In this document: positions 2,849-54,407 of the stretch, one piece after another
How the letters are laid out: each line of letters opens with the position of its first letter
How positions within the stretch are numbered: the stretch's first letter is position 1
From: an uncultured Iamiaceae bacterium
GTDB taxonomy: Bacteria; Actinomycetota; Acidimicrobiia; Acidimicrobiales; Acidimicrobilacustridaceae
Length of the DNA stretch: 64,000 bases
Direction: 5' to 3'
NCBI GenBank assembly: GCA_964446345.1
Contig: CAYUOL010000001.1
Span: 24,132-88,131 of the forward strand
Translations under genes and position numbers: made by a program
Notes under the pieces: model-generated
What the model was told of the DNA's origin: nothing
The model's database searches: none
What the model saw: only the letters and a program-made list of their open reading frames with translations

Positions 2849-3041
2849 AAAACCTCCCAAAAACCTGTCATTTAGATGTATCTTACTGAGGAGTAGGCTA
2901 TCTCTGACCTCCAGGTAAATGTCAAGCCGCGGAGCGGCTTGCGACCTGCGGCTTGAACGCAGGCGGAGAAATGTGCATTGGAGACAGGGCGCGACGGTGT
3001 GTCGCTTCCTGCATCGTGCCGCAACTTGGGGAAGTACAGGG

Positions 3042-7191: not shown

Positions 7192-7264
7192 TTTTGCCTC
7201 CCAAGCGTTCAAAGATGACTTGCGGTCTGGCGAGCGTCGGCCGGCCAAGCCGCCGTATTCCAAT

Positions 7265-7879
7265 TCACGCCATTAGCCAGCCCTGCACGGCTGCAGCCTC
7301 CTGCCGACAATACTCGGGCGCTCCCAGCATCTGACGGTTAAACGCGATGCGTTTGAACCAATAGTGCAAGCCAAGCAGGTCAGTGAAGCCCATCCCTCCA
7401 TGCACTTCCGTGGTCAGACGTGCGACTGACCATCTTCAACCCGCGCATGTGTTTTTGCGGCAGCGAGGTCCGAGCCAGACCCCGGCTCAGAATAACCTTG
7501 ACACCAGATGACCTCGCCGCGGATGGTCGGACCGATCCATTTCGCACACTGCTCCTTGGATCCGACCTCAAGAAGGGTCGGAACGAGCATCGATATCCCT
7601 TGGTTCATAATGCCAGCGGAAACACCGGCCGTCGAAAACTCGTCGGCTATGATCGCCAGCTCCCTTACGTCCAAAGGTAATCCGAAGCCGCCATACTCTT
7701 TGGGAATCGTGCGCGCGAAATATCCGTGTCGAAGCAGCAGGTGTTGCCACTCGAGCGCCCGCTTGTCGGGTCGCTTGCGGCCGCCGCCCGTTCGCGGCGA
7801 TAGGTCGCCGTGGCGCCTCACGAAGGCCGCGAACCTCCTCCCGTAGCGCTCGATATTTGGGGCCGTAGCTCAAGTCCAT
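7265..7879 (-). pseudogene. Acyl-CoA dehydrogenase pseudogene (frameshift plus internal deletion)
   Basis: ATG 7879 has a GGAGGAGGA SD and gives MDLSYGPKYRALREEVRG. The frame shifts near 7820 to FVRRHGDL...WCQGYSEPGSGSDLAAAKTHARVEDG. It then jumps straight to the C-terminal end TEVHGGMGFTDLLGLHYWFKRIAFNRQMLGAPEYCRQEAAAVQGWLMA*. The middle and most of the C-terminal domain are missing. Confidence 0.75.
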
Positions 7880-8030
7880 GAGCATCCTCCTCCGCCAAGT
7901 GCTCCGTGCACAGTCGGTGCGATGCGCCACAACGGACGTGGCCCTCGCTTGCGCAAGATCTCGCAGCTTCCGAACCGCCCCCTCAGCCCCTGACCGAGCA
8001 GCCGGGCACTTGCCTTCATTGCGCAACAAT

Positions 8031-8046
8031 TCTAACGTTTGTTTGG
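8031..8046. promoter_or_regulatory. Degenerate copy of the TCTAAC-N4-GTTAGA operator
   Basis: TCTAACGTTTGTTTGG has a perfect left arm and 4/6 in the right arm. It lies in the divergent region between the ACAD pseudogene and the thiolase operon. Confidence 0.3.
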
Positions 8047-8303
8047 TTTATACTCTTATGTTCTGCAGCCGCGGTCAAGGAGGCTGCTACATGATTTTGG
8101 TTCATTCGGGACGACCCAATTGGCCGGCCGTAGGAGCTCGGAGAGTCGGCATATCCGGATGCGTCGAGCTTGTTCGATGAAGCAAAGGGTTACTCGAGAC
8201 ATACGAGCAAGACGGCCATACTGTTTCGGTCGGCCTTGTATCAGCTCAGATCGTCGGCGTCGCGATGGCCAAAGACAACATAGTACAATTAAGGAGGCTT
8301 TAG

Positions 8304-10834: not shown

Positions 10835-12112
10835 TTAGAGATCGACGTCGCCTGACAGTAATCGCTGGGCAATCATTCGCGTCAGGATTTCATTCGTGCC
10901 GTCGGCAATGTTGACGATCCTCAGGTCTTGCCAGGCGTGAACAAGACCGATTTCGTTCGTCAATCCCATGCCGCCGTGTGTCTGAATTGCACGATCCACG
11001 GCGCGAAATCCGGCTTGTACCGAATAGGCCTTTGCCATCGAAAGCTCCTTCGGCGCTTTATCGCCGCGGTCGAGGAGCATCGCTGCATTCAATCCCATCA
11101 GGTGCGCAGCGTGCAATTCCGTAGCTGCTTCGGCTATCGGAAACGAGACGGCTTGATACTCCGCGATCTTTGAACCGAAGGCCTCACGTTGCTTCGAATA
11201 GTCGATGGCCATTTCCAGCGCCCATCTTCCCTGTCCGACAGCTCGGGCGGCGTTGTACACCCGACCCAGCGAGACTCCATATAGTGCGATCTTGAATCCC
11301 TGGTCGAGCTCGCCGACCAATTGCCAAGGCTGTACCTCTACCTCCTCAAGCACAAGAGCGCCCTCGTGCCCGCCGACGTGACCAAACAAGCGCACGACGC
11401 TCTCAACATGAAATCCTCGTGCATCGGTTGGAACGAGAAATGCGCTGATGCCTCCAGCCTTTCGCACAGCTTTCTCGACGTCGGTGATGGCGAAAACAAT
11501 GCACCATTCCGCAGTGGGAGCGTTGGTTGTCCAGAGCTTGCGGCCAGAGATTTTCCAGCCTGTTCCGGTCTTGTCAGCCCGCGTCTTGATCATGCTGGCG
11601 TCTGAGCCGGCCCCCGGCTCGGAAAGACCAAAGCACATCGATGTCTTCCCGGCCATCATGCCCGCCAAGCATCTCTCGCGGGCTACCTCTGTGACCTGGG
11701 TGAGCAGTCGGCTGGGCCCGAAAGCCCAGTGTGCAATGACCCAGGGAATAATGACGCCCTGCCCCCCGAGCCGGCGATATATCGCCTCCCAGGCCACGTA
11801 GTAGACAAGGTGCCCCAGCCCACCTCCCCCGATTTCCGCCGGTGCGCACATCGCATAGAAGCCGGCTTCGGCCGAAAGCATCCTAACTTGTTGGATCAAC
11901 GTGCGTACTTCGGCGCTGTATCGACCATATTCGTCGTACAGCCGTCGCTGATCTTCGAGAAGCGTGCGATTCCCATCGATCAGCGGCACGACCTGCGAAT
12001 CGACAAAACGCAGAACGCCATCGCGCACTTCAACGACGTACTCGGGAAGTTCAAACGCAACACTGCCCACTGCGATCGCCCCGCTAGTTTCTAAATAGGC
12101 AACGCTCGTCAC
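10835..12112 (-). CDS. Acyl-CoA dehydrogenase
   Basis: 425 aa with a GTG start. Motifs CFGLSEPGAGSD, WTTNA and a C-terminal IADGTNEI. Confidence 0.88.
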   Translation of the reverse strand: MTSVAYLETSGAIAVGSVAFELPEYVVEVRDGVLRFVDSQVVPLIDGNRTLLEDQRRLYDEYGRYSAEVRTLIQQVRMLSAEAGFYAMCAPAEIGGGGLGHLVYYVAWEAIYRRLGGQGVIIPWVIAHWAFGPSRLLTQVTEVARERCLAGMMAGKTSMCFGLSEPGAGSDASMIKTRADKTGTGWKISGRKLWTTNAPTAEWCIVFAITDVEKAVRKAGGISAFLVPTDARGFHVESVVRLFGHVGGHEGALVLEEVEVQPWQLVGELDQGFKIALYGVSLGRVYNAARAVGQGRWALEMAIDYSKQREAFGSKIAEYQAVSFPIAEAATELHAAHLMGLNAAMLLDRGDKAPKELSMAKAYSVQAGFRAVDRAIQTHGGMGLTNEIGLVHAWQDLRIVNIADGTNEILTRMIAQRLLSGDVDL

Positions 12113-12162
12113 GGAACCTTGCGTTCTGATCTCCCGACAGAGCCGCTAGATCACGCGCACCC

Positions 12163-12945
12163 TTACCTGCCCTGCCAGACCGGCTTGCGCTTTTCGGCAA
12201 ACGCTCTGGGACCTTCGATTGCGTCTTGGCTGGCATAGACAACTTCGTGAAGGCGTTTACCCTCTACCAGTCCCTCGCGGCATCCGAGGTCCATCGTCGA
12301 GCGAACACTGGCTTTGGCAGCAATGACAGACAATGGCGCACCGTTGGCAATGCGCATAGCCAAATCCTTGGCACGAGAGCGCACAGCGTGTGGTGTATCT
12401 TCAAGATAATTAGTGAAACCGTAATCGTGCAGCCGTTCAATTGGCATGAGATCGCCCGTCAGAACGATCTCCATAAGGATTGCCTGAGGTAGCATATAGA
12501 GGGCCGGAGCGGCCCAGGGCGAGCCACGACCGATCTTTACCTCCGTGATGCCGGCCTTAGTCCCTTTGAGACCGACGCGCAGATCGCACATCAGCGACAG
12601 CATCATTCCGCCCGCCATCAGCGAGCCGGTCATCGCGGCAATGATTGGCTTGGAGCACGTGCGCATGCGCTCGTGGAAAGGATCGCGCATTTTGGACAGG
12701 ATATCGATCTGTTCGTTGCGAGCGATCTCGGCCGCCTCCTTGAGGTCAAGCCCCGCGCTGAAGACGCCACAGTCGGCAGAGGTTAGAATTACCGCCCGGA
12801 TCTTGCTGTCCGCTTCGATCCGGTCCCAGGCATCGGCCAGTCCATTAGCCGCCGCCACAGATAGCGCGTTCTTGCGGTCAGGACGATTGATAAGAACGGT
12901 AGCAATACCTTCTTCGACGCTGACTTCGATTGGACTATCGATCAT
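12163..12945 (-). CDS. Enoyl-CoA hydratase/isomerase (crotonase family)
   Basis: MIDSPIEVSVEEGIATVLINRPDRKNAL and SADCGVFSAGLDLKE. The internal ATG at 12945 gives a typical length of about 260 aa. Confidence 0.85.
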   Translation of the reverse strand: MIDSPIEVSVEEGIATVLINRPDRKNALSVAAANGLADAWDRIEADSKIRAVILTSADCGVFSAGLDLKEAAEIARNEQIDILSKMRDPFHERMRTCSKPIIAAMTGSLMAGGMMLSLMCDLRVGLKGTKAGITEVKIGRGSPWAAPALYMLPQAILMEIVLTGDLMPIERLHDYGFTNYLEDTPHAVRSRAKDLAMRIANGAPLSVIAAKASVRSTMDLGCREGLVEGKRLHEVVYASQDAIEGPRAFAEKRKPVWQGR

Positions 12946-22162: not shown

Positions 22163-22178
22163 TCTAACATGTGTTAGA
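22163..22178. promoter_or_regulatory. Palindromic operator TCTAAC-N4-GTTAGA
   Basis: TCTAACATGTGTTAGA has 7-bp perfect arms. It lies 43 bp upstream of the SDR start codon that heads the long minus-strand operon. Confidence 0.6.
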
Positions 22179-28132: not shown

Positions 28133-28148
28133 TCTAACATCCGTTTGA
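28133..28148. promoter_or_regulatory. Near-consensus copy of the TCTAAC-N4-GTTAGA operator
   Basis: TCTAACATCCGTTTGA has 5/6 in the right arm. It lies in the divergent region between carboxyltransferase (start 28069) and SDR (start 28260). Confidence 0.4.
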
Positions 28149-41268: not shown

Positions 41269-41284
41269 CCTAACAAACGTTAGA
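41269..41284. promoter_or_regulatory. Operator copy CCTAAC-N4-GTTAGA
   Basis: CCTAACAAACGTTAGA has one mismatch. It lies in the 92-bp divergent region between the ACAD start (41223) and the fadH start (41316). Confidence 0.55.
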
Positions 41285-41315: not shown

Positions 41316-43349
41316 ATGAACACGACGGCTTCGTCGACCTACGCCAGATTGCTCTCACCGCTCAAGGTCGGGCGCCACGAAATGCGCAACCGGATCATCA
41401 TGGGTTCAATGCATACCAAGCTCGAATGCAAGCCCGACCCGATCGCCGCGCAACTTGCCTTCTATGTCGAACGTGCGCGCGGCGGCGTTGCGCTCATCGT
41501 CACCGGGGGGTTTTCGCCTAACGCCGAAGGCGTGCTTGACGCTCAAGGACCGCGGCTCGACGATCCCGAAGAGGCCCAGGCGCTTCGCCCGATCTGCGAT
41601 GCAGTACATCACGAGGGCGCTCTCATCTGCGCGCAGCTCCTTCATGCAGGGCGCTATGCAAAGATTGCGGGCTGCGTGGCGCCTTCCCCAATTCGGGCAC
41701 CAATCAACCGCCATATCCCGCGCGAGATGCTCGATAGCGACATTCTCCGCACAATCAGCCAATTCGCCGAGGCGGCAGCGAACGCGCAGGCTGCAGGCTT
41801 TGACGGTGTGGAGATCATGGGATCCGAGGGCTATCTCATTAACGAGTTCACGGTGACCCACACCAACAAGCGCGAAGATGCTTGGGGCGGCAGCGCGGAG
41901 AACCGCCATCGTTTTCCTGTCGAGGTCGTGCGCGCGGTGCGCCAGCGCTGCGGTCCGGATCTACTGATCATCTATCGCATTTCGGCTGCCGATCTCATCG
42001 AAGACGGCGCACCGGCGGATGAGATCGCCGCCCTTGCCCGCAAGGTGGAGGCCGCAGGTGCCGACATTATCAACACTGGAATTGGCTGGCACGAGGCCCG
42101 CGTGCCTACTATCGCCTACCCCGTGCCACGAGGAGCTTGGCGCAAGGCCGCCGCACGGGTCCGCGCTGCCGTCTCCATCCCCGTGGTCGCGTCCAACCGC
42201 ATCAGCACCGCGGAGATGGCCGAGGACATCCTCGCGAGCGGCGATGCAGATCTCATCTCTATGGCGCGGCCAATGCTGGCCGATCCGTTCTTCGCCAACA
42301 AGGTCCGCGATGGACGAGTGGACGAGATCAATACCTGCATCGCCTGCAACCAGGCTTGTCTGGACTACATCTTCTCTGGCCGCGCGGTGAGTTGCCTTGT
42401 AAATCCTCGCGCTGGCCGCGAGTCCGAGCTGCGCGATACGCCCGCGGAGGTCCGGAAAAAGATCGCGGTGGTCGGCGGCGGCGCGGCGGGGATGGCTACC
42501 GCAACGGAAGCGGCGCGACGCGGTCACTTTGTTTCGTTGTTCGAAGTTTCTCAAACGCTCGGAGGACAGCTTACGCTGGCGCGCGCAGTTCCTGGCAAGA
42601 ATGAGTTCGACGACACTCTGCGTTACTTCCGACGCCAGGTAGACAAGCACGGGGTCAACCTGCATCTTGGCCGCCGCGCCTCCCCCGAGGATCTGAGCGG
42701 GTACGATCATGTGGTGATTGCTACCGGCGTCAGCCCCCGCATCCCCGATCTGCCGGGCGTTGACCATCCCAAGGTGGCAACCTATGCGGAAATCCTATCG
42801 GGCACACGGGTCGCGGGAAAGACCGTCGCCATCGTGGGCGCTGGCGGGATCGGCTTCGACGTGGCCGAGTTTCTCGTCACTCCTACCGCCGAGGCTAACG
42901 GCAGCGAGGCTTTTTTCGACACTTGGGGCGTGGATGGAAATTTCTCCGCGCCCGGCGCGCTCAAGGCTGATCCGCAAGCACCGGTGGGCGGCACCCGCAA
43001 AGTCGTCATGCTGCAGCGTAAGACCACTAAGCCCGGTGACGGACTCGGCGTTTCCACGGGCTGGATCGTTCGCAACGCGCTACGCAAATACGGCGTCGAG
43101 ATGTTGGGCGGCGTCAGCTATGAGCGAATCGACGATGAGGGCCTACACATCAAGATCGCCGGCCGACGTCAGGTCATCGCAGCTGACACGATCGTGCTTT
43201 GCACCGGGCAGGAGTCTGAGCGCGCGCTTCACGCCGCACTGATTGAGCGCGGCATCCCGGCCACAGTAGTCGGCGGGGCCAAGGAAGCCACCGAACTGGA
43301 CGCCTTACGCGCGATTGACGAGGGCATCCGGCTGGCACAATCGCTTTAA
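41316..43349 (+). CDS. fadH: NADPH-dependent 2,4-dienoyl-CoA reductase (OYE domain + FAD/NAD(P) domain)
   Basis: 677 aa. OYE-like N-terminal half (RIIMGSMHT, GFDGVEIMGSEGYLINEF), a Cys-rich linker CIACNQAC, then the Rossmann motif VVGGGAAGM. Confidence 0.9.
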   Translation: MNTTASSTYARLLSPLKVGRHEMRNRIIMGSMHTKLECKPDPIAAQLAFYVERARGGVALIVTGGFSPNAEGVLDAQGPRLDDPEEAQALRPICDAVHHEGALICAQLLHAGRYAKIAGCVAPSPIRAPINRHIPREMLDSDILRTISQFAEAAANAQAAGFDGVEIMGSEGYLINEFTVTHTNKREDAWGGSAENRHRFPVEVVRAVRQRCGPDLLIIYRISAADLIEDGAPADEIAALARKVEAAGADIINTGIGWHEARVPTIAYPVPRGAWRKAAARVRAAVSIPVVASNRISTAEMAEDILASGDADLISMARPMLADPFFANKVRDGRVDEINTCIACNQACLDYIFSGRAVSCLVNPRAGRESELRDTPAEVRKKIAVVGGGAAGMATATEAARRGHFVSLFEVSQTLGGQLTLARAVPGKNEFDDTLRYFRRQVDKHGVNLHLGRRASPEDLSGYDHVVIATGVSPRIPDLPGVDHPKVATYAEILSGTRVAGKTVAIVGAGGIGFDVAEFLVTPTAEANGSEAFFDTWGVDGNFSAPGALKADPQAPVGGTRKVVMLQRKTTKPGDGLGVSTGWIVRNALRKYGVEMLGGVSYERIDDEGLHIKIAGRRQVIAADTIVLCTGQESERALHAALIERGIPATVVGGAKEATELDALRAIDEGIRLAQSL

Positions 43350-43382
43350 GGGTGGATGATATCGTCTGTTGACATTGGTCTA

Positions 43383-44418
43383 TGTAGGGCCTCAAGAGGT
43401 TGTTCCTGGCTAAACCGAGTCGGCTGATGGGAGTGTTGGCCTTCAGACTACCATGCGGCCGATGCCAATTGTAGCGATGAGCCAATGCACCAGCTCGGCT
43501 GATCGTTGATCTGAGTTCTGGTAGGCGCGGGCATATGCCCATTCGCGAAGGGAAGTTTGGATGAAGCGCTCGGCCTTGCCGTTGGTCTTCGGGGTATATG
43601 GCCTGGTGAAGATTTGGTGAAAGACCAAGGCGCCTGCAAGCTGCTCGGAACATCCTTGAGCGGTAGCACGAGCCATTATCAGTCATCACGCGCTCGACGC
43701 GGACTCCGAGCCTGGCAAAGTAAGTGACAGCGGCCTCAAGAAAAGCCACTGCACTTTCCTTGCGCTGATCGGCCATCACCTGCACGAAGGCGATGCGTGA
43801 AGCATCGTCGATGCAGACATGGACGAACTCCCAGCCGATGCCATGGTGGCGATTGATCGCGCCGGGATACCGCCCGGTGATGCGATGTCCCACAGAGCCG
43901 ATCCGGCCGAGCTTCTTGATGTCGAGGTGGATAAGCTCGCCGGAGTGCTCGCGCTCATAGCGGCGGATCGGCTCGGCCGGCTCCAGCTCGGCCAACCTGT
44001 TCAGGCCGAGCCAGCGCAGGATGCGGCTGACGGTTGCGGGCGATATTCCGACTTCGGCAGCGATCTGCCTGCCCGTGTGGCGCTGCCGACGCAACGCCTC
44101 GACAGTGGCACATGTAGCTGCCGGGGTTTGGCCTGGCAATGAATGGGGCCGTGAGGAACGATCCCGCAGCCCATCCACGCCTTCTGTGCGGAAGCGGGTG
44201 ACCCACTTGGCGACAATCGTTGGTGATGTTGAATTGGCGCGTGGCTGCGGCCTTGCTGAGCCCTCCTTCAACAACACTGCGCACCATGGCCTCTCGACCT
44301 TTGGGCGTCAGAGGCGCATTCTTGTGAGTGTCCATTCGATCCCCCGCGAATCACTGTGTGTTTGGCGACATCAGCGTTCACGGTTGCGGTCGAATGGACA
44401 ACCTCCTGAAAGCTCACA
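43383..44418 (-). mobile_element. IS481-family insertion sequence with frameshifted (dead) transposase
   Basis: Imperfect terminal IRs starting TGT: TGTAGGGCCTCAAGAGGTTGTTCC (43383-) against the reverse complement of 44396-44418, TGTGAGCTTTCAGGAGGTTGTCC. The transposase starts at ATG 44335 (MDTHKNAPLTPKGREAMV). It is split over at least 3 frames (…VAKWVTRFRTEGVDGLRDRSSRP…, …RPYTPKTNGKAERFIQTSLREWAY…, …YNWHRPHGSL…). Confidence 0.8.
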
Positions 44419-44583: not shown

Positions 44584-46521
44584 TCAGCGGCCTTTGTTCC
44601 TCAATGCAGCGATGGGAGCAATGACCTCGGGATTCTGCAACGGCGACAGGTCGCCCGGATTCTCGCCCAGAAACGCCGCGCGGACGACGCGGCGCATGGT
44701 CTTCATACTGCGAGTCTTTGGCAGCGCCTCGACAAAGTGTATCTCGCGCGGGCGGAAAGGTTGGGAGACCGCGGCGGCTACATTGTCCTTCAGTTGCTCC
44801 ACCAAGGTGTCGTCGGTTTTCACGCCGGGGGCGAGGACGCAGACGCAGACCACAGCTAGGCCCTTTAGATCATCCGGCGCTGCAATTGCAGCGGCGTCGA
44901 TTACATTACCAGTGGCGGTTAGTGCGGCCTCGATCTCGGTCGGGCCGATACGCTTGCCGGCAATGTTGAGTGTGTCGTCCGAACGGCCGAGAATGAACCA
45001 TGTTCCGTCGGAATCGCGGCGCGCCCAATCGCCATGCCGCCAAACGCCGGGGTAATCGGACCAGTAGGTCTCGAGATATCGCGAGTGATCCCGCCAGATC
45101 GTCGGGGTCAGGCCCAGCGGCGGCTTGGTGACCACCAGCTCGCCCATCTCGCCGTCTGTCGCCTCGGACCCATCCGGTCGCAGCACTTTCGCCCCGACGC
45201 CCAACGCCTCGCTGGAAAAACCGCAGGGCCGCAACGTGTGCAGCACGGTCGACGTCAGGATTGCGCCAAAAAGCTCAGTCCCGCCGGAGATGTTGAGTGG
45301 CACCGCCCTGTGGCGGCAGATGTGTTCCAGATGCCAGAGCCAGGCATCCTCGGTCCAGGGTTCGCCGGTGGAAGCGACGATGCGCAGAGCGGAGAGATTG
45401 TACCGCGCCAGCGGACCGGGATCGCTTCTCATAAACTGTCGCACCAACGTGGGCGCGACGCCAAGATGGGTAACGCCGTGTTCGCTCGCGAGGCGCAGCA
45501 GGCGGAATGGATCGTCCGGCGTGGAGGGCGCCCCTTCGGCCAGCACCAGTGTCGCGCCCGCCAGAAGCGTCGAGATCAGGGTCAGCGGGCCCATAACCCA
45601 GCCCATATCGGTCATCCACAGGTGCCGGTCCTCGCGCTTCAAGTCGAGGCACAACAAGAAATTGGTCGTTGCCGCCGCCTGCACACCGAGATGCGTGTGA
45701 ACCACCCCCTTGGGCCGGCCGGTTGTCCCAGAAGTGTAGGCAATCATCAGCGGCGCCTCTGATGCAACCGGAACAGGTGCAAAATCCGCCTTTGCGGCCC
45801 CGACTGTGGCAGCCCAGTCCAGATCCCGCCGTGGGTCGGCGGCGCTGCCGCCGAAGCGGCGCAGGCTGATCACCGTGTGCACGCTGGATACGTCGGCCAG
45901 AGCCTCAACCAGCACGGATTCCATGGGAACAGGCCTGCCGCGACGCCTACTCGCATCGGCCGTCAAAACCGCTTTGGCCGTGCAGTCGTTCAAGCGTGCC
46001 GCCACGGCCGGCGCCGGGTATCCGGAGAACAGGGGGACGGCGATAGCGCCGAGCCTCGCAACGCCCAGGAGGGCCGCTTCGATCTCGGGCACCATCGGCA
46101 TGTAGATGCCAACCGCATCACCCGCGCCTACGCCGCGGGCGGCCAGGGCGCTGGCAACCCGGGCGCTTTCGCAGGCGAGATCGCGGTAGGTCCAGACGCG
46201 CCGTTCCCCGTCTTCGCCGATCCAGTCGATGGCGGCTTTTTCCCCGAGCCCAACTTCGATACGAGCGTCAAGGCAAGTCTCGGTGAGGTTGAGAGTGGCG
46301 TCCGCGGCCCAACGGATTCCGGCTGGCCCACCGCTCACGTCCCGCAACGTTCGGTAACGACGCGAAAAGCGCACGTTCGCAAGATCGAGAATTTGTGACC
46401 AGAACCAATCGGGTTCAGCGTCGGCCCGCGCGACGAGACTTTCGTAATCTGTCAGGCCGCAGCGCGTGAGAAAAGCTCTGATCGCGCTGCAGTCCTGGAT
46501 GTCTTTAGATGGCGTAAACAT
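44584..46521 (-). CDS. Acyl-CoA synthetase of the acetyl/propionyl-CoA synthetase (ACS) family
   Basis: 645 aa. N-terminal EPDWFWSQIL pattern, motif YTSGTTGRPKGV, C-terminal PKTRSMKTMRR. Confidence 0.85.
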   Translation of the reverse strand: MFTPSKDIQDCSAIRAFLTRCGLTDYESLVARADAEPDWFWSQILDLANVRFSRRYRTLRDVSGGPAGIRWAADATLNLTETCLDARIEVGLGEKAAIDWIGEDGERRVWTYRDLACESARVASALAARGVGAGDAVGIYMPMVPEIEAALLGVARLGAIAVPLFSGYPAPAVAARLNDCTAKAVLTADASRRRGRPVPMESVLVEALADVSSVHTVISLRRFGGSAADPRRDLDWAATVGAAKADFAPVPVASEAPLMIAYTSGTTGRPKGVVHTHLGVQAAATTNFLLCLDLKREDRHLWMTDMGWVMGPLTLISTLLAGATLVLAEGAPSTPDDPFRLLRLASEHGVTHLGVAPTLVRQFMRSDPGPLARYNLSALRIVASTGEPWTEDAWLWHLEHICRHRAVPLNISGGTELFGAILTSTVLHTLRPCGFSSEALGVGAKVLRPDGSEATDGEMGELVVTKPPLGLTPTIWRDHSRYLETYWSDYPGVWRHGDWARRDSDGTWFILGRSDDTLNIAGKRIGPTEIEAALTATGNVIDAAAIAAPDDLKGLAVVCVCVLAPGVKTDDTLVEQLKDNVAAAVSQPFRPREIHFVEALPKTRSMKTMRRVVRAAFLGENPGDLSPLQNPEVIAPIAALRNKGR

Positions 46522-46599
46522 ACCATTTCATCCGATACGGTATCTCGGCACGGTCCGGCCGTATCAATCCACAAGTTGAGGGCGCCGCCGTCGCGCGCG

Positions 46600-47361
46600 T
46601 CATCCATGCATCGTCAGCCCGCCGGAGACCGAAATCACTTGGCCGGTGATGAAACCAGCGTCGTCGGAGGCAAGGAAGCAGATGATCCCCGGGTAGTCGG
46701 TCGGTTGCGCGAGCCGTCGCATCGGAATGGAACGCTTGAGACCTTCCGCGATTTTCTCGCCACCTTCGCCCTTCGAGAATTCGGCGAAAAGCGGTGTGTC
46801 GGTCGGCCCTGGGGCCACGGCATTGAGCTGTATTCCCTTGCGCGCCAATTCCCGCGCCACTGTCTTGGTGAAGGCGATAATGCCGCCCTTGCAGGCCGAG
46901 TAAACAGCTTCGCCTGAGGAGCCAACGCGGCCCGCGTCGGAACTGATATTGACCACGCGCCCGCCTCCGTTTCTAACCATGCCCGGAAGTACCGCGTGAT
47001 GCATGTTCAGGGGACCGTAGAGGTTAATGTCAATAACCTTTTTCCAGAGCGTTGCGTCGGATTCCAGGAAAAGTCGAGGGACGTCCCAGCCGGCATTGTT
47101 GACCAGAACATTGATGGGCCCGCCTTTCTCCACCTCGGCCACAGCCGCATCGACTGCCGCACGTTCGGTGATGTCAACGGCGTGGGCAGTCGCTTTGCCA
47201 CCTGCGTCCCCTATGATCTTCACAGTTTCAGTCGCACCCGCGGCATTTATGTCGAATACGGCGACCTCGCTGCCTTCTTCGGCGAATCGCTTGCATACTT
47301 CGCGTCCGATCCCGCTGCCGCCGCCGGTTACGATTGTCCGCTTCCCTTTTAGCCCGCGCAT
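46600..47361 (-). CDS. SDR oxidoreductase resembling 2-hydroxycyclohexanecarboxyl-CoA dehydrogenase (BadH)
   Basis: ATG 47361 follows GGGAGGGG. Motifs TGGGSGIG, NNAGWD, SSGEAVYSACKGG and a C-terminal GQVISVSGGLTMHG. The resemblance to R. palustris BadH is from memory. Confidence 0.8.
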   Translation of the reverse strand: MRGLKGKRTIVTGGGSGIGREVCKRFAEEGSEVAVFDINAAGATETVKIIGDAGGKATAHAVDITERAAVDAAVAEVEKGGPINVLVNNAGWDVPRLFLESDATLWKKVIDINLYGPLNMHHAVLPGMVRNGGGRVVNISSDAGRVGSSGEAVYSACKGGIIAFTKTVARELARKGIQLNAVAPGPTDTPLFAEFSKGEGGEKIAEGLKRSIPMRRLAQPTDYPGIICFLASDDAGFITGQVISVSGGLTMHG

Positions 47362-47421
47362 GGTTATCACCCCTCCCTTCCGCGGATACGCCATAGGTGT
47401 TCTAACCTTAGGCGACCAAAT

Positions 47422-47437
47422 TCTAACGTATGTTAGA
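47422..47437. promoter_or_regulatory. Palindromic operator TCTAAC-N4-GTTAGA
   Basis: TCTAACGTATGTTAGA lies between the BadH-like SDR (start 47361) and the double-TetR gene (start 47458 or 47482). An extra TCTAAC half-site is at 47401-47406. Confidence 0.6.
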
Positions 47438-47457
47438 TTATCGCACTTGCTATTTCG

Positions 47458-48870
47458 ATGTCTAGAGGCAAATTACACAATATGAATTCGCCCTCACCGC
47501 AGCTTGGAACTACTGGAAAAAATCATGGCAAGTCGGAGCAGACGCGCGCCCTCATCCTGAGCGCCGCCGCGAAGCTATTTCGAGATGAAGGATACGATGC
47601 CACGACGCTCCGCAAGATCGCGAAGGCTGCGCGTATGGAGGCGGGTAGCCTATATTATCACTTTGCGTCGAAGGAGGCGATCTTCGACGAAATCCTTCGA
47701 TTGGGCGTACGGCACGTTTTCGACGCCGTGCAGAAGGTCCGAGAGGATTGCCGGCTCTCCGGCAGGGATTTCCGACAGACATTCGCCTTGATGATCGACG
47801 CGCACTTGACGTATTTCCTGAAAGAAAGTGATTTCACTTCGGCAAATATCCGAAATTACTCGAGGCTTCCTCAGGACATGCGCGTGACCCATCGACCACT
47901 GCGCCAAGCCTACACCTCCGTGTGGGACAATTTCTTTGCAGAGGCTCAAACGGCCGGGGACATTCGGAGCGACATCAAAGTCGTACCGCTGCGACAGTTC
48001 GTGCTGGGAGCAATGAATTGGACAGTCGAATGGTATGATGCGACGCGCTATCCCGTAAGCATGCTGTCTGAGCGCTTGTGTAAACTTCTTTTGGACGGAA
48101 TGTCCACCGCACGCGGCATGCCATTGAAACAGCCAGGTCCAATCGAACTGGAAACCCTGGACCTGATTGATTCCGACGACAGCAAATCATCCCGCACCCG
48201 CGTCCAAGTGCTCTCCGCTGCAGCGCGGATTTTTCGCGACAGAGGGTACAAGGCTGCAACAATGCGAGATATCGCGCAAGAAGCCGGCATGGAAGCAGGC
48301 AGCATCTATTATCATTTTAATTCAAAGGATGAGATACTCGACGAAGTGCTCGATATTGGATTGCGAGCGGTCCTGCGCGGAATGTCGTCGACCATTTCGA
48401 AGACACATCAGTTTCCCGATCACCGCAGCCGGATCGCCGCAGCGATCCGTACCCATATGGAGTACCTCTTTCGTTTGAGCGAATTTACGTCTGCGAATAT
48501 CCGCATTTTCGGGCAGCTACCCAAGAAGGTGCGAGCACGTCATCAGCCAATACGACACAAGTACGCGAACCTTTGGGATGACTGCTTACGCAAAGCGCAG
48601 GAAGCGGGTGAGCTGCGCTCCGATATCAAGGTTGTGCCTTTGCGGCAGGCCATGCTGGGAGCGCTCAACTGGACTGTAGAGTGGTTCAATCCAGAAAAGG
48701 GCCAACGCGATGGATACTATTCGCTGTCTGAATTGATTGTGATGTTGCAGAGCCTACTGTTGGATGGCCTTCAGTACGATGCCGGTCCTTCGCTTCACCA
48801 TCGCGACTTGCCCTCTACGAGCAAACGAACGAGGCGGCGCGCCTTGCGCGCTGGATCTCACGCCGGCTAA
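47458..48870 (+). CDS. Tandem (double) TetR-family regulator: two complete TetR units in one chain
   Basis: Unit 1 is SEQTRALILSAAAKLFRDEGYDATTLRKIAKAARMEAGSLYYHFASKEAIFDE...FTSANIRNY...SDIKVVPLRQFVLGAMNWTVEW. Unit 2 starts near nt 48181: SSRTRVQVLSAAARIFRDRGYKAATMRDIAQEAGMEAGSIYYHFNSKDEILDE...FTSANIRIF...SDIKVVPLRQAMLGALNWTVEW. Alternative start ATG 47482. Confidence 0.88.
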   Translation: MSRGKLHNMNSPSPQLGTTGKNHGKSEQTRALILSAAAKLFRDEGYDATTLRKIAKAARMEAGSLYYHFASKEAIFDEILRLGVRHVFDAVQKVREDCRLSGRDFRQTFALMIDAHLTYFLKESDFTSANIRNYSRLPQDMRVTHRPLRQAYTSVWDNFFAEAQTAGDIRSDIKVVPLRQFVLGAMNWTVEWYDATRYPVSMLSERLCKLLLDGMSTARGMPLKQPGPIELETLDLIDSDDSKSSRTRVQVLSAAARIFRDRGYKAATMRDIAQEAGMEAGSIYYHFNSKDEILDEVLDIGLRAVLRGMSSTISKTHQFPDHRSRIAAAIRTHMEYLFRLSEFTSANIRIFGQLPKKVRARHQPIRHKYANLWDDCLRKAQEAGELRSDIKVVPLRQAMLGALNWTVEWFNPEKGQRDGYYSLSELIVMLQSLLLDGLQYDAGPSLHHRDLPSTSKRTRRRALRAGSHAG

Positions 48871-50063
48871 GCGTCTTTCTTGTTTACAATCAGCGACGCG
48901 TTCTCCTCCAGGAGATCGATAAATTCCACGCCATCGGCCCGGATTCGTGCACTGGTGGCAAAAGCTTCGATGGCACGTGTTTGGGCCATGATACGATCGG
49001 CGCCGGGCTCGGCGACGAGCAAGAGGCGCACGGTATCCCGATCGTTCTCGCATGTCACAACCGCCTGGGCGGCGCGCACGCCTGGGGTCGCGATAACCAC
49101 TTCTTCGATGGCGCGGGGGTAGACGAAAATCTCACGGACTTTTACGGCCGCGCCGACTCGTCCCTGCAAGGCCGAAAGACGCGTAACGCGACCATCTCCG
49201 TCACTCTCAAGAGCGAAGCCGCTATCTCCGGTGCCGAAGCGGATCATCGGCCAGTTGGCGTCGCGTGCGGTCACCACGATCTCACCGGTTTCGCCGGCGG
49301 CCAAGGGTTCCCCACTGATGGGATCGCAGATCTGCACCACGTGATTGGGATGCGCAACATACCCTTCGCCGTCATCCTCATAAGCCACAAGACCCAGATC
49401 GGCCGTCGCATAGGCGGCCCAGGTTGTAACGCCATAGTCCGCTTCGATACGACGCCGTTTCGCCATCCAGTCGCCCATCTCGCCGCCGAGGAATGCTGAT
49501 CTGACCTTCCAAGCGTTCCGCCCATACGCCTCGATTACCGTATCCGCCAATGTAAGGAAGAATGCCGTGCTGGCGCAGACCGCGGTCACGCCGGTTTCAA
49601 CGATGATCTGCGCCTGCAGCTCACGGTTTCCCGTACCACCGGGAATGACCGTCGCGCCGACTGCACGCGCTGCTTCGTCGAACAAAAGACCTGCCGGGAC
49701 CAGATGATAGGACCATGTGTTCAGGAGGAGATCGCCCACCGTGATCCCCGCAGCCTTGAACAGCTCCTTGAGGCCGTGCCCGCCACCTCCCGCCAATGAG
49801 GGCTCGAAGATCGGTCCGGGCGACACATAGATCCGCGACAGGCTTTCGAGATCGGCTGCGAGAAAGCCTCCAAAGGGCGGATTTTCCCTTTGGAGTGCCA
49901 GGAGCTGTTCTTTCTTCAGAACCGGCAGGCGAGAGAGATCCCTCAATGATCTGATGCTTGCCGGGTCGAAACCCGCCGCATCGAAGCGTGCCTTTAGGCC
50001 GGGCGCCTTACGTGCCGCCTGGCCATAGGCTGCAGCGATCTTCCGGTAAATCGCGTCGGGCAT
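48867..50063 (-). CDS. PaaK-like adenylate-forming-family protein with degenerate P-loop
   Basis: 398 aa. The N-terminus LRDLSRLPVLKKEQLLALQ is PaaK-like. Where PaaK has SSGTTG, this protein has RIYVSPGPIFEP. Confidence 0.7.
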   Translation of the reverse strand: MPDAIYRKIAAAYGQAARKAPGLKARFDAAGFDPASIRSLRDLSRLPVLKKEQLLALQRENPPFGGFLAADLESLSRIYVSPGPIFEPSLAGGGGHGLKELFKAAGITVGDLLLNTWSYHLVPAGLLFDEAARAVGATVIPGGTGNRELQAQIIVETGVTAVCASTAFFLTLADTVIEAYGRNAWKVRSAFLGGEMGDWMAKRRRIEADYGVTTWAAYATADLGLVAYEDDGEGYVAHPNHVVQICDPISGEPLAAGETGEIVVTARDANWPMIRFGTGDSGFALESDGDGRVTRLSALQGRVGAAVKVREIFVYPRAIEEVVIATPGVRAAQAVVTCENDRDTVRLLLVAEPGADRIMAQTRAIEAFATSARIRADGVEFIDLLEENASLIVNKKDA

Positions 50064-50090
50064 ATGCTCGCTACCTCTCTCCCGCGCAAA

Positions 50091-50900
50091 CTAAATAGGG
50101 CAGTCCTTGCGAAAATTCGGAGCGCGCTTCTCCCGATGTGACAGCACGCCTTCCTTGACGTCAGGGCCCATGAAACCCAGCATCTCGAACGCAGTGGAAG
50201 CGTCGAAGATTGGCCCGGCCTGGCGCAACCAATTATTCAGTGAATATTTCGTCCAGCGGATCGCGCTTTGCGCGCCGTTTGCCAACTCAACTGCAGTGTC
50301 GAGAGCGACTTGCTGCAGTTGATCATCGTCGACACACATGGATACCAAGCCAATGCGCTCGGCCTCTTCGCCGGAGATTGCCTTGCACGTCAGAAGATAA
50401 TACTTTGCCTTGGCCATGCCGCAGAGCAGCGGCCAAATGATCGCCGCTACGTCACCTGCGGCAACCCCCAGGCGGGGGTGCCCGTCAACAATCTTGGCTC
50501 GCTTGCCTGCGATCGACACGTCAGCCAGAATTCCGACAACGAGCCCCGCACCCGCGGCTGGGCCATTGATCGCCGAGATGATAGGCTTGTTGCAATTGAT
50601 GATGTTGTAAACGAGATCCTTGGCTTCCTTCCAGGTTCTCATCATCTCGTCGAAGTTGCCCGCTATTCTTTCGATCAGGCTGAAATCTCCCCCCGCCGAA
50701 AACGCCTTGCCAGCCCCCGTCACGATAACCGCGTTGATGTTGGGGTCGCGGTCGACATCAATCCACATGTCGGTCATTTGCGTGTGCGTTTCCGCATCCA
50801 CGGAGTTGAAGGTTTCGGGACGATCGAACGTGATCCGAAGAACACGGTCCGCCGGATAGTCGAATTTCAGTTTGTTGTATTTGGCATAGCGGTCAGACAT
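50091..50900 (-). CDS. Enoyl-CoA hydratase/isomerase (crotonase family)
   Basis: ATG 50900 follows GAAGGAGGAAG. Motif [15 protein letters not shown]. Confidence 0.88.
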
Positions 50901-50939
50901 GGTGTGTTCTTCCTCCTTCAATGTACGGGCAATTATCTA

Positions 50940-52091
50940 TCAGCCAGGCAAGCCGAGAACGGCTTTCGACAAGATATTGCGCTGGATCTCATTCGTCCCG
51001 CCGTAGATCGTGGTCGGTCGCGCCTTGTAGAAGTTCGCCAGCACGTCAACACCGACATTGCCGAGCTGTAAGGGACCGATCAGGCCGCCGTCAGGTCCGG
51101 CGGATTCGATCATGAGTTCGGTAATCTCTTGGAACGTCTCAGTGACCCAGATCTTCAGCATCGACACGTCGGGACCGAGCATTTCGCCGCGCTTGAGTTG
51201 GTCGGCGAAGCGGCTATAGAGCGCCGCGTGATCCTCAACATCCAGAGCGACTTTCGCAAAGCGATCGCGGAACACCGGATCGTTGAACATGCAGCGCCCT
51301 TGCGCAATCGTCCGTAACTGAACAAGTGCGTTTTGCGCCAGGTTGGGCGCACCGATGAAGATTCGCTCGAAGCCGAGCAGGGCCTTGGCCATCGTCCAAC
51401 CCTTGTTCAGTTCGCCAACCAGGTTTTCGCGGGGCGCGCGAGCATTGTCGAAGAATACCTCGCAGAACTCGTCTTCACCCGCGAGCGTCGTGATCGTGCG
51501 AACTTCGATGCCCGGCTGGTTCATTTCGGCGAGCAAGAAGCTGATGCCCTCCTGTTTTTTTCGCGCATGAGAATCGGTGCGCACCAGCATAAAGATGTGC
51601 GTGGCGTCATGAGCCATCGTGGTCCAGATCTTCTGCCCATTGATCACGAAATAATCGCCGTCGATCACGGCACTCGTGCGCAGACTGGCGAGATCGGACC
51701 CCGAGCCCGGCTCGGAGTAGCCCTGACACCAGATGTGCTCACAAGTAAGGATACGCGGCAGCCAGTAGTGTTTCTGCGCCTGGGTGCCAAACTTGATGAT
51801 AAGGGGGCCGACCATCTGCACACCCATGTCGCGGCCCCGCGTCACGCCCCAGCGCTGCTGCTCTTCATAAAAGATGAGGAGCTTCGAAGCTTCCAGACCC
51901 ATGCCGCCATATTCGACCGGCCAAGCAGGCGCGACCATGCCCTTGGCGTAGAGCTTCTCGTGCCATTGGCGGATCTCGGCGAACTTCGCCCGATGCGGCA
52001 GATGGCGTAGCTCTTCGGGATACTCGGTCTCGAAGAAGGTGCGAACCTGGCGGCGGAACGCTTCGTCACTCAGTGCATTCCAGTCGGTCAT
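50940..52091 (-). CDS. Acyl-CoA dehydrogenase, canonical-motif member of an adjacent pair
   Basis: 383 aa. Motifs CQGYSEPGSGSDLAS and IYGGTNEIQRNIL. ATGA overlap with the upstream ACAD. Confidence 0.88.
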   Translation of the reverse strand: MTDWNALSDEAFRRQVRTFFETEYPEELRHLPHRAKFAEIRQWHEKLYAKGMVAPAWPVEYGGMGLEASKLLIFYEEQQRWGVTRGRDMGVQMVGPLIIKFGTQAQKHYWLPRILTCEHIWCQGYSEPGSGSDLASLRTSAVIDGDYFVINGQKIWTTMAHDATHIFMLVRTDSHARKKQEGISFLLAEMNQPGIEVRTITTLAGEDEFCEVFFDNARAPRENLVGELNKGWTMAKALLGFERIFIGAPNLAQNALVQLRTIAQGRCMFNDPVFRDRFAKVALDVEDHAALYSRFADQLKRGEMLGPDVSMLKIWVTETFQEITELMIESAGPDGGLIGPLQLGNVGVDVLANFYKARPTTIYGGTNEIQRNILSKAVLGLPG

Positions 52092-53200
52092 CGACCTGCC
52101 TCATTTGCCTCAAGAGCGTCCATCCAACGAGCCCGGTGGTAGGCGGCATCCCCGAGCCAGGCCGAAAGCACAAGCGCACGGTTCAGAAACAAGCCGATGT
52201 CGAACTCGTCCGTATAGCCGACTGCACCGTGGAGTTGAATCGATTCCCGGGTGATCCTCTTGGCCGTGCTGCAGGCGCGAGCTTTGGCGCGGCTCGCCTC
52301 ACGTATGCGCGCGCCCTGATCGGCGCTCACATCCATCCGTGCCAGCGCCTCGCTCACCCCCGCCTCGGCCACCTGCTGAGCGACATACAGGTCTACGGCG
52401 CGGTGCTGGATGACCTGAAACGACCCGATTGGCTTGCCGAACTGCTCGCGCGTCTTCACATAATCGAGGGTCAGTTCGAGTGCTTTAGCGCTGACGCCGA
52501 CCAGCTCGGCGGCGGCGAGCGCCGTGGCGTCGGCGACGACGGTGGACAACGCTTCCGATACCACCGAGCCTTCGGCCAGCAATTTACCTGGGGCGTCGAC
52601 AAAGCCGATGTCGCAGAGCTGGCTTCCGTCGGACTGTCGCCGCAGCTCCGAGTAGATCCCCTTGCCATCAGCGTCGAGGGCAACGAGAACGGGCTTCGAA
52701 TCATTTTGCGCAACCACGAGCAATTGATCCGCGCCGACGGCCCCGGCAATCCAGGCCTTTGAGCCGTTCAGCACCTTACCGTCGAAACGGCATGCCATTT
52801 GGTCAGAGTAACCTCGAAGACCACGTTCCTGCCAAGCGAGGGCGCAGGCGATTTTGCCACTGATAGCCGTAGCGAGCATCGCATCGCCAGGACATACCCG
52901 TTGAATCATTCCGATCGCAAGTGCGATGGCTGACACCACCGGTTCGGGCGTGAGCGCGCGACCAACTTCTTCCACGATCACACCGGCCGCTGTAAGTCCC
53001 ATGCCAAGTCCGCCGACCGCTTCTGGGGCGGCGACACCGAGCACGCCAGCATGGGCCAGTTCGTTCATCACCTGTCGGTCCCAGCCCTTGTCGCGAGCGT
53101 TACGGGCGCGTGCGATGCCGCCCGCGCGCTCAAAGAGTGTGCGCACGCTTCCGCGCAGCATCCGCAAATCGTCCTGTGAATGCGCCCTCACATTGCTCAT
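52088..53200 (-). CDS. Acyl-CoA dehydrogenase-fold protein, divergent-motif member of the pair
   Basis: 370 aa and ACAD-like overall (LHGAVGYTDEFDIGLF). The nucleotide/substrate loop is degenerate: ALAWQERGLRGYSD in place of xSEPGxGSD. ATGA overlaps on both sides. Confidence 0.8.
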   Translation of the reverse strand: MSNVRAHSQDDLRMLRGSVRTLFERAGGIARARNARDKGWDRQVMNELAHAGVLGVAAPEAVGGLGMGLTAAGVIVEEVGRALTPEPVVSAIALAIGMIQRVCPGDAMLATAISGKIACALAWQERGLRGYSDQMACRFDGKVLNGSKAWIAGAVGADQLLVVAQNDSKPVLVALDADGKGIYSELRRQSDGSQLCDIGFVDAPGKLLAEGSVVSEALSTVVADATALAAAELVGVSAKALELTLDYVKTREQFGKPIGSFQVIQHRAVDLYVAQQVAEAGVSEALARMDVSADQGARIREASRAKARACSTAKRITRESIQLHGAVGYTDEFDIGLFLNRALVLSAWLGDAAYHRARWMDALEANEAGR

Positions 53201-53646
53201 GACGGCGGCGCTGCCTTTCGCTTAACCATCGCGGCGGTATCGACGGTCAGCACGGGCTCTCCTGCCATGTTGCGCGCTTCGACACGGTAGCTGACGACAC
53301 CCCGATCGGGCTTGGTTTGGGAGGGCCTCACTGCCTGCATCTTCAATGTAACATCAAGCGGCTCATTCGCCCGCACAGGCGCGTTCCAAGATAGTCTCTC
53401 GAAACCCAAACCACCGATGTTTGCGACCCCCGTCATGAAGTCCCGCATAATCGGCCTGAATACGAGGAGGAGTGTCTGGAACCCCGATGCGATCAGACCG
53501 CCATGGATTTGCTTGGCATAGTATTCATCCGTATGCAGCCGCTGCGGATCCCATTCCCTGGCGAACGAAATTATCTCGTCCTTGCTTAAGGGAGGGGTGC
53601 GGAACGCAAAAATTTGTCCGACCTTGAAATCCTCCAAGTACTTCAC
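53197..53646 (-). CDS. MaoC-like (R)-specific enoyl-CoA hydratase (single hotdog)
   Basis: 149 aa with a GTG start in a GTGA overlap. Motif EWDPQRLHTDEYYA...GGLIASG. Confidence 0.8.
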   Translation of the reverse strand: MKYLEDFKVGQIFAFRTPPLSKDEIISFAREWDPQRLHTDEYYAKQIHGGLIASGFQTLLLVFRPIMRDFMTGVANIGGLGFERLSWNAPVRANEPLDVTLKMQAVRPSQTKPDRGVVSYRVEARNMAGEPVLTVDTAAMVKRKAAPPS

Positions 53647-54368
53647 GGCCGATGCCCTTCCTCCGTCGGCGCAAAACCATCGTCAAAGCCGCTCTGCCCC
53701 GCGATCCGGCAACGGTTGAATTCCTCCAGCTTGGGATAGGTTGCTTTGAACGCCGCCAGGAATTCGTCGATTGGCGCATCCACGTACAAGCCCCGGTCAT
53801 GAACATATTCCATGTGCCTCTGATTCTTTTCGTCGAACTCGTGAAACAGAGCGTCAGACGTCCCGTCGAAGAGAAGAGGCTTTACTCCGAAGCGCTTGCA
53901 TAGCTCCATGTTGAAGGCCGGCGTAACCTTGTAGGGCCTCCCGTCGAGCCACAGCTGCACGTATCCGTGGTAAATGAAGAGATCCGTTTGCATCAGCTCG
54001 GTTAGCTTTGGCGTATTCAAATGGTTACGAACGTCGGCGAAGCCCAATGCAGCGGGAATGCCAACAGCACGTAGGCAGGCGGTCAGCAAGATCGCCTTGG
54101 GCACACAAAAAGCAGACTCCGCCCCTGCCACCACGCTAGCGCGATAAGCATCGGGGCTCAGTTCAAACGTGTAGGGATCATATCGGATGCCATCGCGCAC
54201 CGCTTCGAACAGTCGGATTGCCTTTTCGGTATCGGAAGCGCTGGAGTTCAGGTTGCGCAAAGCAGACTCTACGAAAGCCCTCACCTCGGCGCTATCGCTA
54301 TCGACAAAGTTTGTTGGGGAAGTTAAGCACGCCGGATCTGCCGGCGGTCGATGATCCGCGCTAGACAT
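53643..54368 (-). CDS. Transglutaminase-like (papain-fold Cys/His) domain protein
   Basis: 241 aa. AESAFCVPKAILLTACLRAVGIPAALGF and a downstream HGYVQLWLDG fit the transglutaminase-core Cys...His pattern. It is the first gene of the operon. Confidence 0.6.
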   Translation of the reverse strand: MSSADHRPPADPACLTSPTNFVDSDSAEVRAFVESALRNLNSSASDTEKAIRLFEAVRDGIRYDPYTFELSPDAYRASVVAGAESAFCVPKAILLTACLRAVGIPAALGFADVRNHLNTPKLTELMQTDLFIYHGYVQLWLDGRPYKVTPAFNMELCKRFGVKPLLFDGTSDALFHEFDEKNQRHMEYVHDRGLYVDAPIDEFLAAFKATYPKLEEFNRCRIAGQSGFDDGFAPTEEGHRP

Positions 54369-54391: not shown

Positions 54392-54407
54392 TCTAACATA
54401 CGTTAGA
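54392..54407. promoter_or_regulatory. Palindromic operator TCTAAC-N4-GTTAGA
   Basis: TCTAACATACGTTAGA lies 24 bp upstream of the transglutaminase-like start codon. It is the exact reverse complement of the 47422 core. Confidence 0.6.

Follow-up and report, generated by a model that had tools for sequence, protein, structure and literature searches.

A stretch of 64,000 nucleotides from an uncultured Iamiaceae bacterium (GenBank assembly GCA_964446345.1, contig CAYUOL010000001.1, positions 24,132 to 88,131 of the forward strand; the whole stretch is hereafter called the window) carries a continuous open reading frame (ORF) of 470 aa for a double TetR-family protein. The gene lies between a divergent operon and a convergent run of genes, and a 16-bp palindrome stands in front of it (Table 1). 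A Pfam scan of the 470-aa protein detected TetR_N twice (E 2.3e-37; 126.9 bits, cut-off 24) and TetR_C_24 twice (E 2.1e-29; 102.5 bits, cut-off 26.4), and the repeat-unit profile matched at residues 25-216 and 243-439. Both hallmarks of TetR-family regulators were found, namely a TetR-type helix-turn-helix (HTH; PF00440), here in two copies, and the all-helical C-terminal ligand and dimerisation domain (α4-α9); each polypeptide therefore holds two complete units of HTH plus ligand domain. When residues 1-227 were compared with residues 228-470 by BLASTP, 96 of 205 positions were identical (47%, E 8e-64), far beyond chance. Identity between the N- and C-terminal halves was high in α1 (60%), the HTH helices α2-α3 (65%), α6 (FTSANIR, 70%) and α8 (NWTVEW, 82%) and low in α4 (27%), α5 (26%) and α7 (33%), showing that the DNA-binding domain and the dimer-interface helix α8 are the best-kept parts and that three helices of the ligand domain diverge. 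The original prediction had described two full TetR units fused in one 470-aa protein, alignable over their whole length, with the shared strings EAGS(L/I)YYHF, FTSANIR, SDIKVVPLRQ and NWTVEW, a short linker around residues 220-240 and dissimilar pocket helices. All four strings were present, and the domain search, the self-alignment, the helix identities and the linker position agreed with that description.

Homology searching recovered over 120 full-length homologues (about 425-500 aa; 52-98% identical), all with the doubled domain set. In a scan of one genome per species, the fused gene was present at 56 loci, almost all of them in Alphaproteobacteria (Rhodobacteraceae, Sneathiella, Mesorhizobium, Enterovirga, Ferrovibrio and Acidocella among them); one locus sits in a metagenome-assembled genome labelled Marinobacter. 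At 23 loci, mostly in Bradyrhizobium or Xanthobacteraceae, the same scan found relatives that have a single unit (~190-200 aa) and are about 50% identical. An orthologue on a RefSeq plasmid of Sulfitobacter alexandrii is a coding sequence of 454 aa annotated "TetR/AcrR family transcriptional regulator". The original prediction had also raised the objection that a sequencing or assembly frameshift might have merged two adjacent TetR genes. This artefact was rejected, since the frame is continuous and the fusion recurs in more than 120 independent homologues, at 56 loci in as many genomes and in the plasmid coding sequence; the explanation is effectively refuted.

Comparison with homologues indicates that the true start is most likely ATG 47482 (Met9), giving 462 aa, and not the start of the 470-aa ORF. 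A start aligned with Met9 is used by 46 of 68 homologues, and the 98%-identical homologue P0001 is 462 aa long. The ATG is preceded by a Shine-Dalgarno-like motif, GTCyAGAGG, which is common to the window and its closer genomic relatives (L001-L006, L052 and L079) and is not present in most other double-TetR loci. At the 3' end, the TAA stop (48868-48870, plus strand) overlaps the TAG stop of the convergent PaaK-like gene (48869-48867, minus strand) within CTAA (48867-48870), as had been predicted, and the same 4-bp stop-stop overlap is kept in an 80%-identical relative, L081.

The recognition helix AGS(I/L/V)YYHF was common to the N units, the C units and the single-unit relatives (S units). 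The N and C DNA-binding domains were equally conserved across the family, with a mean pairwise identity of 72.1% each; for the ligand domains the values were 60.3% in the N unit and 64.6% in the C unit. One explanation of the doubled protein is that a single unit serves as the working sensor and DNA reader while the other, its pocket or HTH decayed, has become a structural partner, and the strong difference between the halves in α4, α5 and α7 (26-33% identity) and the slightly faster evolution of the N-unit ligand domain would fit it. However, the two HTHs are intact and have their recognition helix in common, purifying selection clearly acts on both ligand domains throughout the family, and a symmetric operator requires two equivalent readers, making such a division of labor very unlikely. 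A degenerate second HTH was rejected in particular, HTH 2 being intact and as conserved as HTH 1; the worry in the original prediction that the second half might lack a DNA-binding domain is thereby removed.

In the palindrome beside the gene, which the original prediction had located correctly, one helical turn (10 bp) separates the centres of the half-sites. Its distance to the start of the divergent gene for a short-chain dehydrogenase/reductase (SDR) is 28 bp, and that to ATG 47482 is 45 bp. When the window was searched for TCTAAC-N4-GTTAGA with up to two mismatches, six sites were found against 0.54 expected, with a maximum of 4 in any of 100 shuffles, and 0 of the 6 fell inside a Pfam-supported gene. 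Sites with at most one mismatch occurred within 260 bp upstream of the double-TetR gene in 47 of 56 loci, and 136 of them were counted across 79 related loci compared with 1.0 in shuffled sequence. The palindrome was also present in 20 of the 23 single-unit loci, and exact copies of it lie among homologous catabolic genes there; where mapped, the sites were near the starts of homologous genes for acyl-CoA synthetase (ACS), enoyl-CoA hydratase (ECH), AliB-like dehydrogenase, old yellow enzyme (OYE) and transglutaminase-like protein. The CCTAAC variant of the window site between the AliB-like and OYE/FadH-like genes is conserved in L001, L010, L012, L049, L056 and L081. This co-occurrence, together with position, makes it very likely that the palindrome is the operator of the double TetR. 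The -10 element of a predicted promoter for the SDR-ACS operon abuts it. A further half-site, TTCTAAC (47400-47406), precedes the left half-site of the operator by exactly 21 bp; it was considered as a conserved third contact and rejected, as it is not conserved in related loci.

Among the related loci L001-L080, those of single-unit relatives had 31 distinct sites, of which 29 were perfect palindromes, compared with 31 of 65 in double-TetR loci, the sites being phylogenetically non-independent. CCTAAC and TCAAAC were the recurrent half-site variants in double-TetR loci. The smaller share of perfect sites there may reflect a relaxation of operator symmetry after the two readers became separate units.

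It is also conceivable that some other regulator binds the palindromes and that the double TetR has a different target. The window does hold a second TetR gene (2919-3674, plus strand), an unrelated single-unit protein with TetR_N and TetR_C_24, and additional single-unit TetRs occur in some related clusters. However, the recognition helix of the second TetR, TKPTIYYYIESK, differs from that of the double TetR and the protein reached just 65 bits against the unit profile, so that it is an unlikely binder of these sites. Further, the palindrome tracks the double-TetR subfamily, being upstream of the gene at most of its loci and present in the single-unit sister loci as well. We regard a different reader as extremely unlikely. 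Rhodobacteraceae clusters L001-L006 (about 7100-8150 and 11260-12370) and L026 (11249-12622) contain the double TetR plus one or two single-unit paralogues. One of these paralogues has the recognition helix KAGSIYYHF, as in the double TetR family, suggesting that several repressors may compete for the same operators.

Table 1. Features of the double-TetR locus and candidate operators in the window
Feature	Position	Strand	Details
Double TetR gene	47458..48870	+	longest ORF 470 aa; likely start ATG 47482 gives 462 aa
N-terminal TetR unit	47530..48108	+	residues 25-217, helices α1-α9; unit profile and AlphaFold2 model
HTH 1	47608..47658	+	α2-α3, residues 51-67; recognition helix EAGSLYYHF
Inter-unit linker	48103..48183	+	residues ~216-242; AlphaFold2 model and family alignment
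C-terminal TetR unit	48184..48777	+	residues 243-440; unit profile and AlphaFold2 model
HTH 2	48262..48312	+	residues 269-285; recognition helix EAGSIYYHF
C-terminal tail, disordered, non-conserved	48778..48867	+	ends at stop overlapping the stop of the convergent gene
Very likely operator palindrome TCTAACGTATGTTAGA (TCTAAC-GTAT-GTTAGA)	47422-47437	.	divergent SDR/double-TetR promoter region
Predicted sigma-70-like promoter of divergent SDR-ACS operon	47437..47464	-	-35 TAGACA, -10 GATAAT with TG; consensus match only
Divergent target operon (predicted)	44584..47394	-	BadH-like SDR 46600-47394 and ACS 44584-46521
Convergent downstream gene run	48867..54368	-	transglutaminase-like gene, two acyl-CoA dehydrogenases, ECH, distant PaaK-like ligase
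Candidate operator, exact copy	54392..54407	.	24 bp upstream of ORF start 54368, first gene of minus-strand run; counterpart in related loci
Candidate operator, 1 mismatch (CCTAAC...GTTAGA)	41269..41284	.	between divergent AliB-like acyl-CoA dehydrogenase and OYE/FadH-like reductase
Candidate operator, 1 mismatch	28133..28148	.	between divergent carboxyltransferase operon and SDR gene
Candidate operator, exact copy	22163..22178	.	upstream of minus-strand run (SDR, ABC transporter, ACS)
Weak candidate operator, 2 mismatches	8031..8046	.	upstream of thiolase-like gene; least certain of six

An AlphaFold2 monomer run on a 68-sequence alignment gave a model with a predicted local distance difference test score (pLDDT) of 86.9 and a predicted template modelling score (pTM) of 0.84, in which the two halves were packed together. 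The N unit of the model comprises 9 helices and the C unit 11 helix elements, and the termini are disordered; pLDDT fell below 50 at residues 444-469 of the C-terminal tail, whose length ranged from 2 to 45 aa across homologues. The linker (~27 aa) was modelled as coil without secondary structure at a pLDDT of 71-89. Its length was 25-29 aa in 56 of 57 family members, while its sequence was non-conserved and rich in P, A, G, T and D. A conserved length fits a tether, because the linker must reach from the end of α9 in unit 1 to α1 of unit 2. The linker of an engineered single-chain TetR is reportedly ~25-29 aa long, similar to that of the family. When the model was searched against the PDB with Foldseek, the double TetR Mce3R (9b7y_A) came first, with 419 aligned columns, a target-normalised template modelling score (TM) of 0.72 and 19% identity. 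It was the sole whole-chain match; all other matches spanned one half, with a query-normalised TM of about 0.35, and single halves matched solved TetRs with a target-normalised TM of 0.7-0.86. The modelled halves thus pack as in the one solved single-chain double TetR, a comparison of the kind that the original prediction had proposed, and the units most likely pair intramolecularly as one TetR-like pseudo-dimer.

Alternatively, units could pair between chains (N of one with C of another) or whole pseudo-dimers could associate, so that four HTHs bridge two operators and loop the DNA. Mce3R is a precedent for such an assembly, as its double chains form a C2 homodimer in which each chain binds a separate DNA duplex, and looping was suggested by the authors of that work; in addition, 5-6 operators lie within 46 kb of the window. 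Against this, the tightly conserved 25-29-aa linker suits an intramolecular tether, the monomer model is confident (though not discriminating on this point), and no sign of an extra dimer interface was seen in the sequence. Assembly across chains appears distinctly unlikely as the primary arrangement, and it is partly compatible with the single-chain pseudo-dimer.

The double proteins were cut into N and C units and placed in a neighbour-joining tree with the single-unit relatives. The N (53 sequences), C (52) and S (22) units were each monophyletic. Mean identities were 44% for N-C, 46% for N-S and 46% for C-S, and N-C identity was the same within one protein (44.3%) as between proteins (44.2%), indicating that a single, ancient tandem duplication and fusion gave rise to the family and that gene conversion did not follow. 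The tree indicates that the N and C units have a common ancestor with the S group. Placement in the Mce3R clade was rejected, as similarity to Mce3R was weak and crosswise: the N half best fits residues 222-348 (unit 2 of Mce3R) and the C half residues 16-71 (unit 1). Both halves also scored higher against the single-unit TetRs 4MXM, 3VPR, 2IBD and 3DCF than against Mce3R, which together with the crosswise matches points to an origin independent of Mce3R. Double TetRs made up 31 of the 150 best representative clusters in an exhaustive profile-free search (P0121-P0269). In most of these, one half resembled its partner (up to ~50%) more closely than it did the N or C unit of the present family, so that TetRs must have been duplicated in tandem repeatedly. 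Nor is the 47% identity between the halves exceptional among double TetRs, an idea that was considered and rejected: the halves of other double representatives, including one from Pseudonocardia, are 35-50% identical. Two of the representatives, P0195 (631 aa) and P0250 (674 aa), carry an extra N-terminal region of ~220-260 aa and unknown nature before the two units.

The original prediction had treated a single-chain TetR as something out of the ordinary, and this part of it did not hold. A "double TetR-family signature" has been described for Mce3R (Rv1963c) of Mycobacterium tuberculosis and predicted for 204 further proteins from Actinomycetes (PMC3711444). Its halves are weakly similar and were viewed as a fusion of diverged TetRs (PMC3711444). 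The cryo-EM structure of 2024 (PDB 9B7Y) revealed a homodimer of double chains, in which a 25-bp non-palindromic operator is bound through non-identical HTHs (PMC11667970). Mce3R is the one natural double TetR studied so far, and the architecture is called unusual and infrequent in the work on it. The double architecture was therefore already known, and the present family is a modest variation on it and no new class of regulator. Each chain contains two TetR units, as in Mce3R (~400 aa), where both HTHs are used by one omega-shaped pseudo-dimer. The family is also associated with lipid or acyl-CoA-type catabolic genes, which Mce3R regulates and which are predicted targets here. Unlike Mce3R, it is found almost only at alphaproteobacterial loci and not in Actinomycetes; its structural alignment to Mce3R shows 19% identity with units matched crosswise, giving no sign of common descent as a double protein; and it has same-helix units, halves 47% identical and a candidate 16-bp symmetric palindrome in place of an asymmetric 25-bp site. 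What appears distinctive is the combination of an independent alphaproteobacterial origin, matching recognition helices paired with a symmetric operator, and the survival of a presumably homodimeric sister group with the same operator.

The engineered single-chain TetR, in which two subunits are joined head to tail by a flexible linker, is cited in PMC3711444. The engineered form shares the covalent head-to-tail arrangement and retains binding to the palindrome recognised by the parent homodimer; it is man-made with identical halves, whereas the family described here is natural and ancient and has diverged ligand domains. The single-unit relatives (L057-L080; Bradyrhizobium and Xanthobacteraceae) show ~46% identity to each half and have the same recognition helix, the same operator and homologous genes; with one unit of ~190-200 aa they are presumably ordinary homodimers. 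PfmR (3VPR), KstR2 (4W97), AibR (5K7Z) and Bacillus subtilis FadR (3WHB/3WHC) have the same fold and TetR_C_24 (per-unit target-normalised TM 0.76-0.86), respond to acyl-CoA and act in a similar catabolic context. They are homodimers of ~190-200 aa, and their likeness to the units described here is one of fold and domain. In Gram-negative bacteria the bad-ali (cyclohexanecarboxylate) pathway is controlled by BadR, a MarR-type regulator with a CAA-N4-TTG site (PMC9795900); the double TetR, being of TetR type with a different operator, does not belong with BadR. A literature search for double TetRs outside Actinomycetes returned the Mce3R work only and no description of such a family, and one for a TetR regulator of cyclohexanecarboxyl-CoA genes in Gram-negative bacteria returned only the MarR-type BadR.

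Taken with the conserved operator, these results make it likely that the protein is a natural single-chain pseudo-dimeric repressor that acts on symmetric operators and controls a local acyl-CoA catabolic regulon. We infer that an ancestral TetR gene of ~200 aa was duplicated in tandem and its copies fused, and that the units, joined by a length-constrained linker, would fold back into the usual TetR 'dimer' within one polypeptide. One chain would then occupy one TCTAAC-N4-GTTAGA operator (1:1). Because both units keep the recognition helix AGS(I/L/V)YYHF, the protein would still read the ancestral symmetric operator. Such operators lie in at least five promoter regions over ~46 kb, including that of the double TetR itself; these promoters would be repressed by the protein, and the repressed genes would serve the catabolism of alicyclic or branched carboxylic acids via CoA thioesters. 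Release would probably be triggered by an acyl-CoA intermediate; an acyl-CoA is the best guess for the effector because the nearest solved TetRs include acyl-CoA sensors.

Several points weigh against this interpretation. The operator has been assigned to the double TetR by co-occurrence and position only, and the single-unit paralogues of L001-L006 and L026, with the same recognition helix, could share the sites. An AlphaFold2 monomer run packs two halves together whatever the real quaternary state, and Mce3R itself homodimerises as double chains, so that a higher-order assembly would be possible by analogy. Lastly, the BadH-like and AliB-like enzymes score below the equivalog cut-offs and thus do not define the substrate. 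A more far-reaching version holds that the alphaproteobacterial family is an independent single-chain TetR in which the ligand domains have specialised while the HTHs stayed locked on the ancestral operator, so that one chain integrates two acyl-CoA signals. Two distinct effector pockets, as suggested in the original prediction, are plausible given the diverged α4, α5 and α7 helices. However, Mce3R, the sole structural precedent, has a single shared ligand-binding domain, and we consider two-signal integration unlikely.

With the single-chain repressor as the preferred interpretation, the family would represent a second, independent route to the double-TetR architecture, a clean tandem duplication that kept the ancestral symmetric operator. 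A double family and a homodimeric sister acting on homologous genes would allow what is gained from a hard-wired repressor dimer to be tested. Candidate gains are assembly independent of concentration, avoidance of mixed dimers with paralogues, and scope for the two pockets or half-sites to evolve apart. If two signals were indeed integrated, the homodimeric sister group of Bradyrhizobium would be a natural control. The protein may also serve as a natural scaffold for the engineering of single-chain repressors. In addition, a predicted operator and regulon are now available for a large catabolic island, which is also represented on plasmids of the marine genera Sulfitobacter, Roseibium and Marinovum, where its genes have generic annotations only.

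The palindromes outline a candidate regulon of ~46 kb for alicyclic or branched acyl-CoA catabolism, and the operator-flanked operons span most of positions 8-54 kb of the window. The products of these operons include acyl-CoA synthetases, several acyl-CoA dehydrogenases and enoyl-CoA hydratases, two biotin-dependent acyl-CoA carboxylase sets, an HMG-CoA-lyase-like protein, a branched-chain-type ABC transporter, a thiolase-like protein and an OYE/FadH-like reductase. The BadH-like SDR scored 352 bits against an equivalog cut-off of 431 and the AliB-like dehydrogenase 538 bits against 575, suggesting that the pathway is a relative of the cyclohexanecarboxylate and branched-acid pathways and not the canonical bad-ali system. 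The PaaK-like ligase is distant, with 109 bits against a cut-off of about 650-700. The gene order ACS, SDR, operator, double TetR is kept in most double-TetR loci. The genes of the downstream run are all present in L040 and, except for the PaaK-like gene, in L081. In L081 the corresponding PaaK-like gene (L081-L083; 9437-10036 in L081) is a remnant ORF of 199 aa without a Pfam hit; the copy in the window is intact (398 aa).

At the far end of the candidate regulon, a P450 gene lies just outside the weak operator site at 8031. A 134-aa ORF (7414-7821, minus strand) with an Acyl-CoA_dh_N domain only, apparently a remnant of an acyl-CoA dehydrogenase, adjoins this weakest operator copy. A homologous cluster was found on the Sulfitobacter alexandrii plasmid NZ_CP018081.1 (L084, 153115-170803), a 349-kb plasmid typed as conjugative, and similar ACS genes were present on Roseibium and Marinovum plasmids, suggesting that the catabolic island may be mobile. 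Within the window, an IS481-family transposase gene (43174-44335, minus strand) lies between the OYE-like reductase and ACS genes. It is split over two overlapping frames and is probably a pseudogene. L081 has just a ~190-bp gap at the same place.

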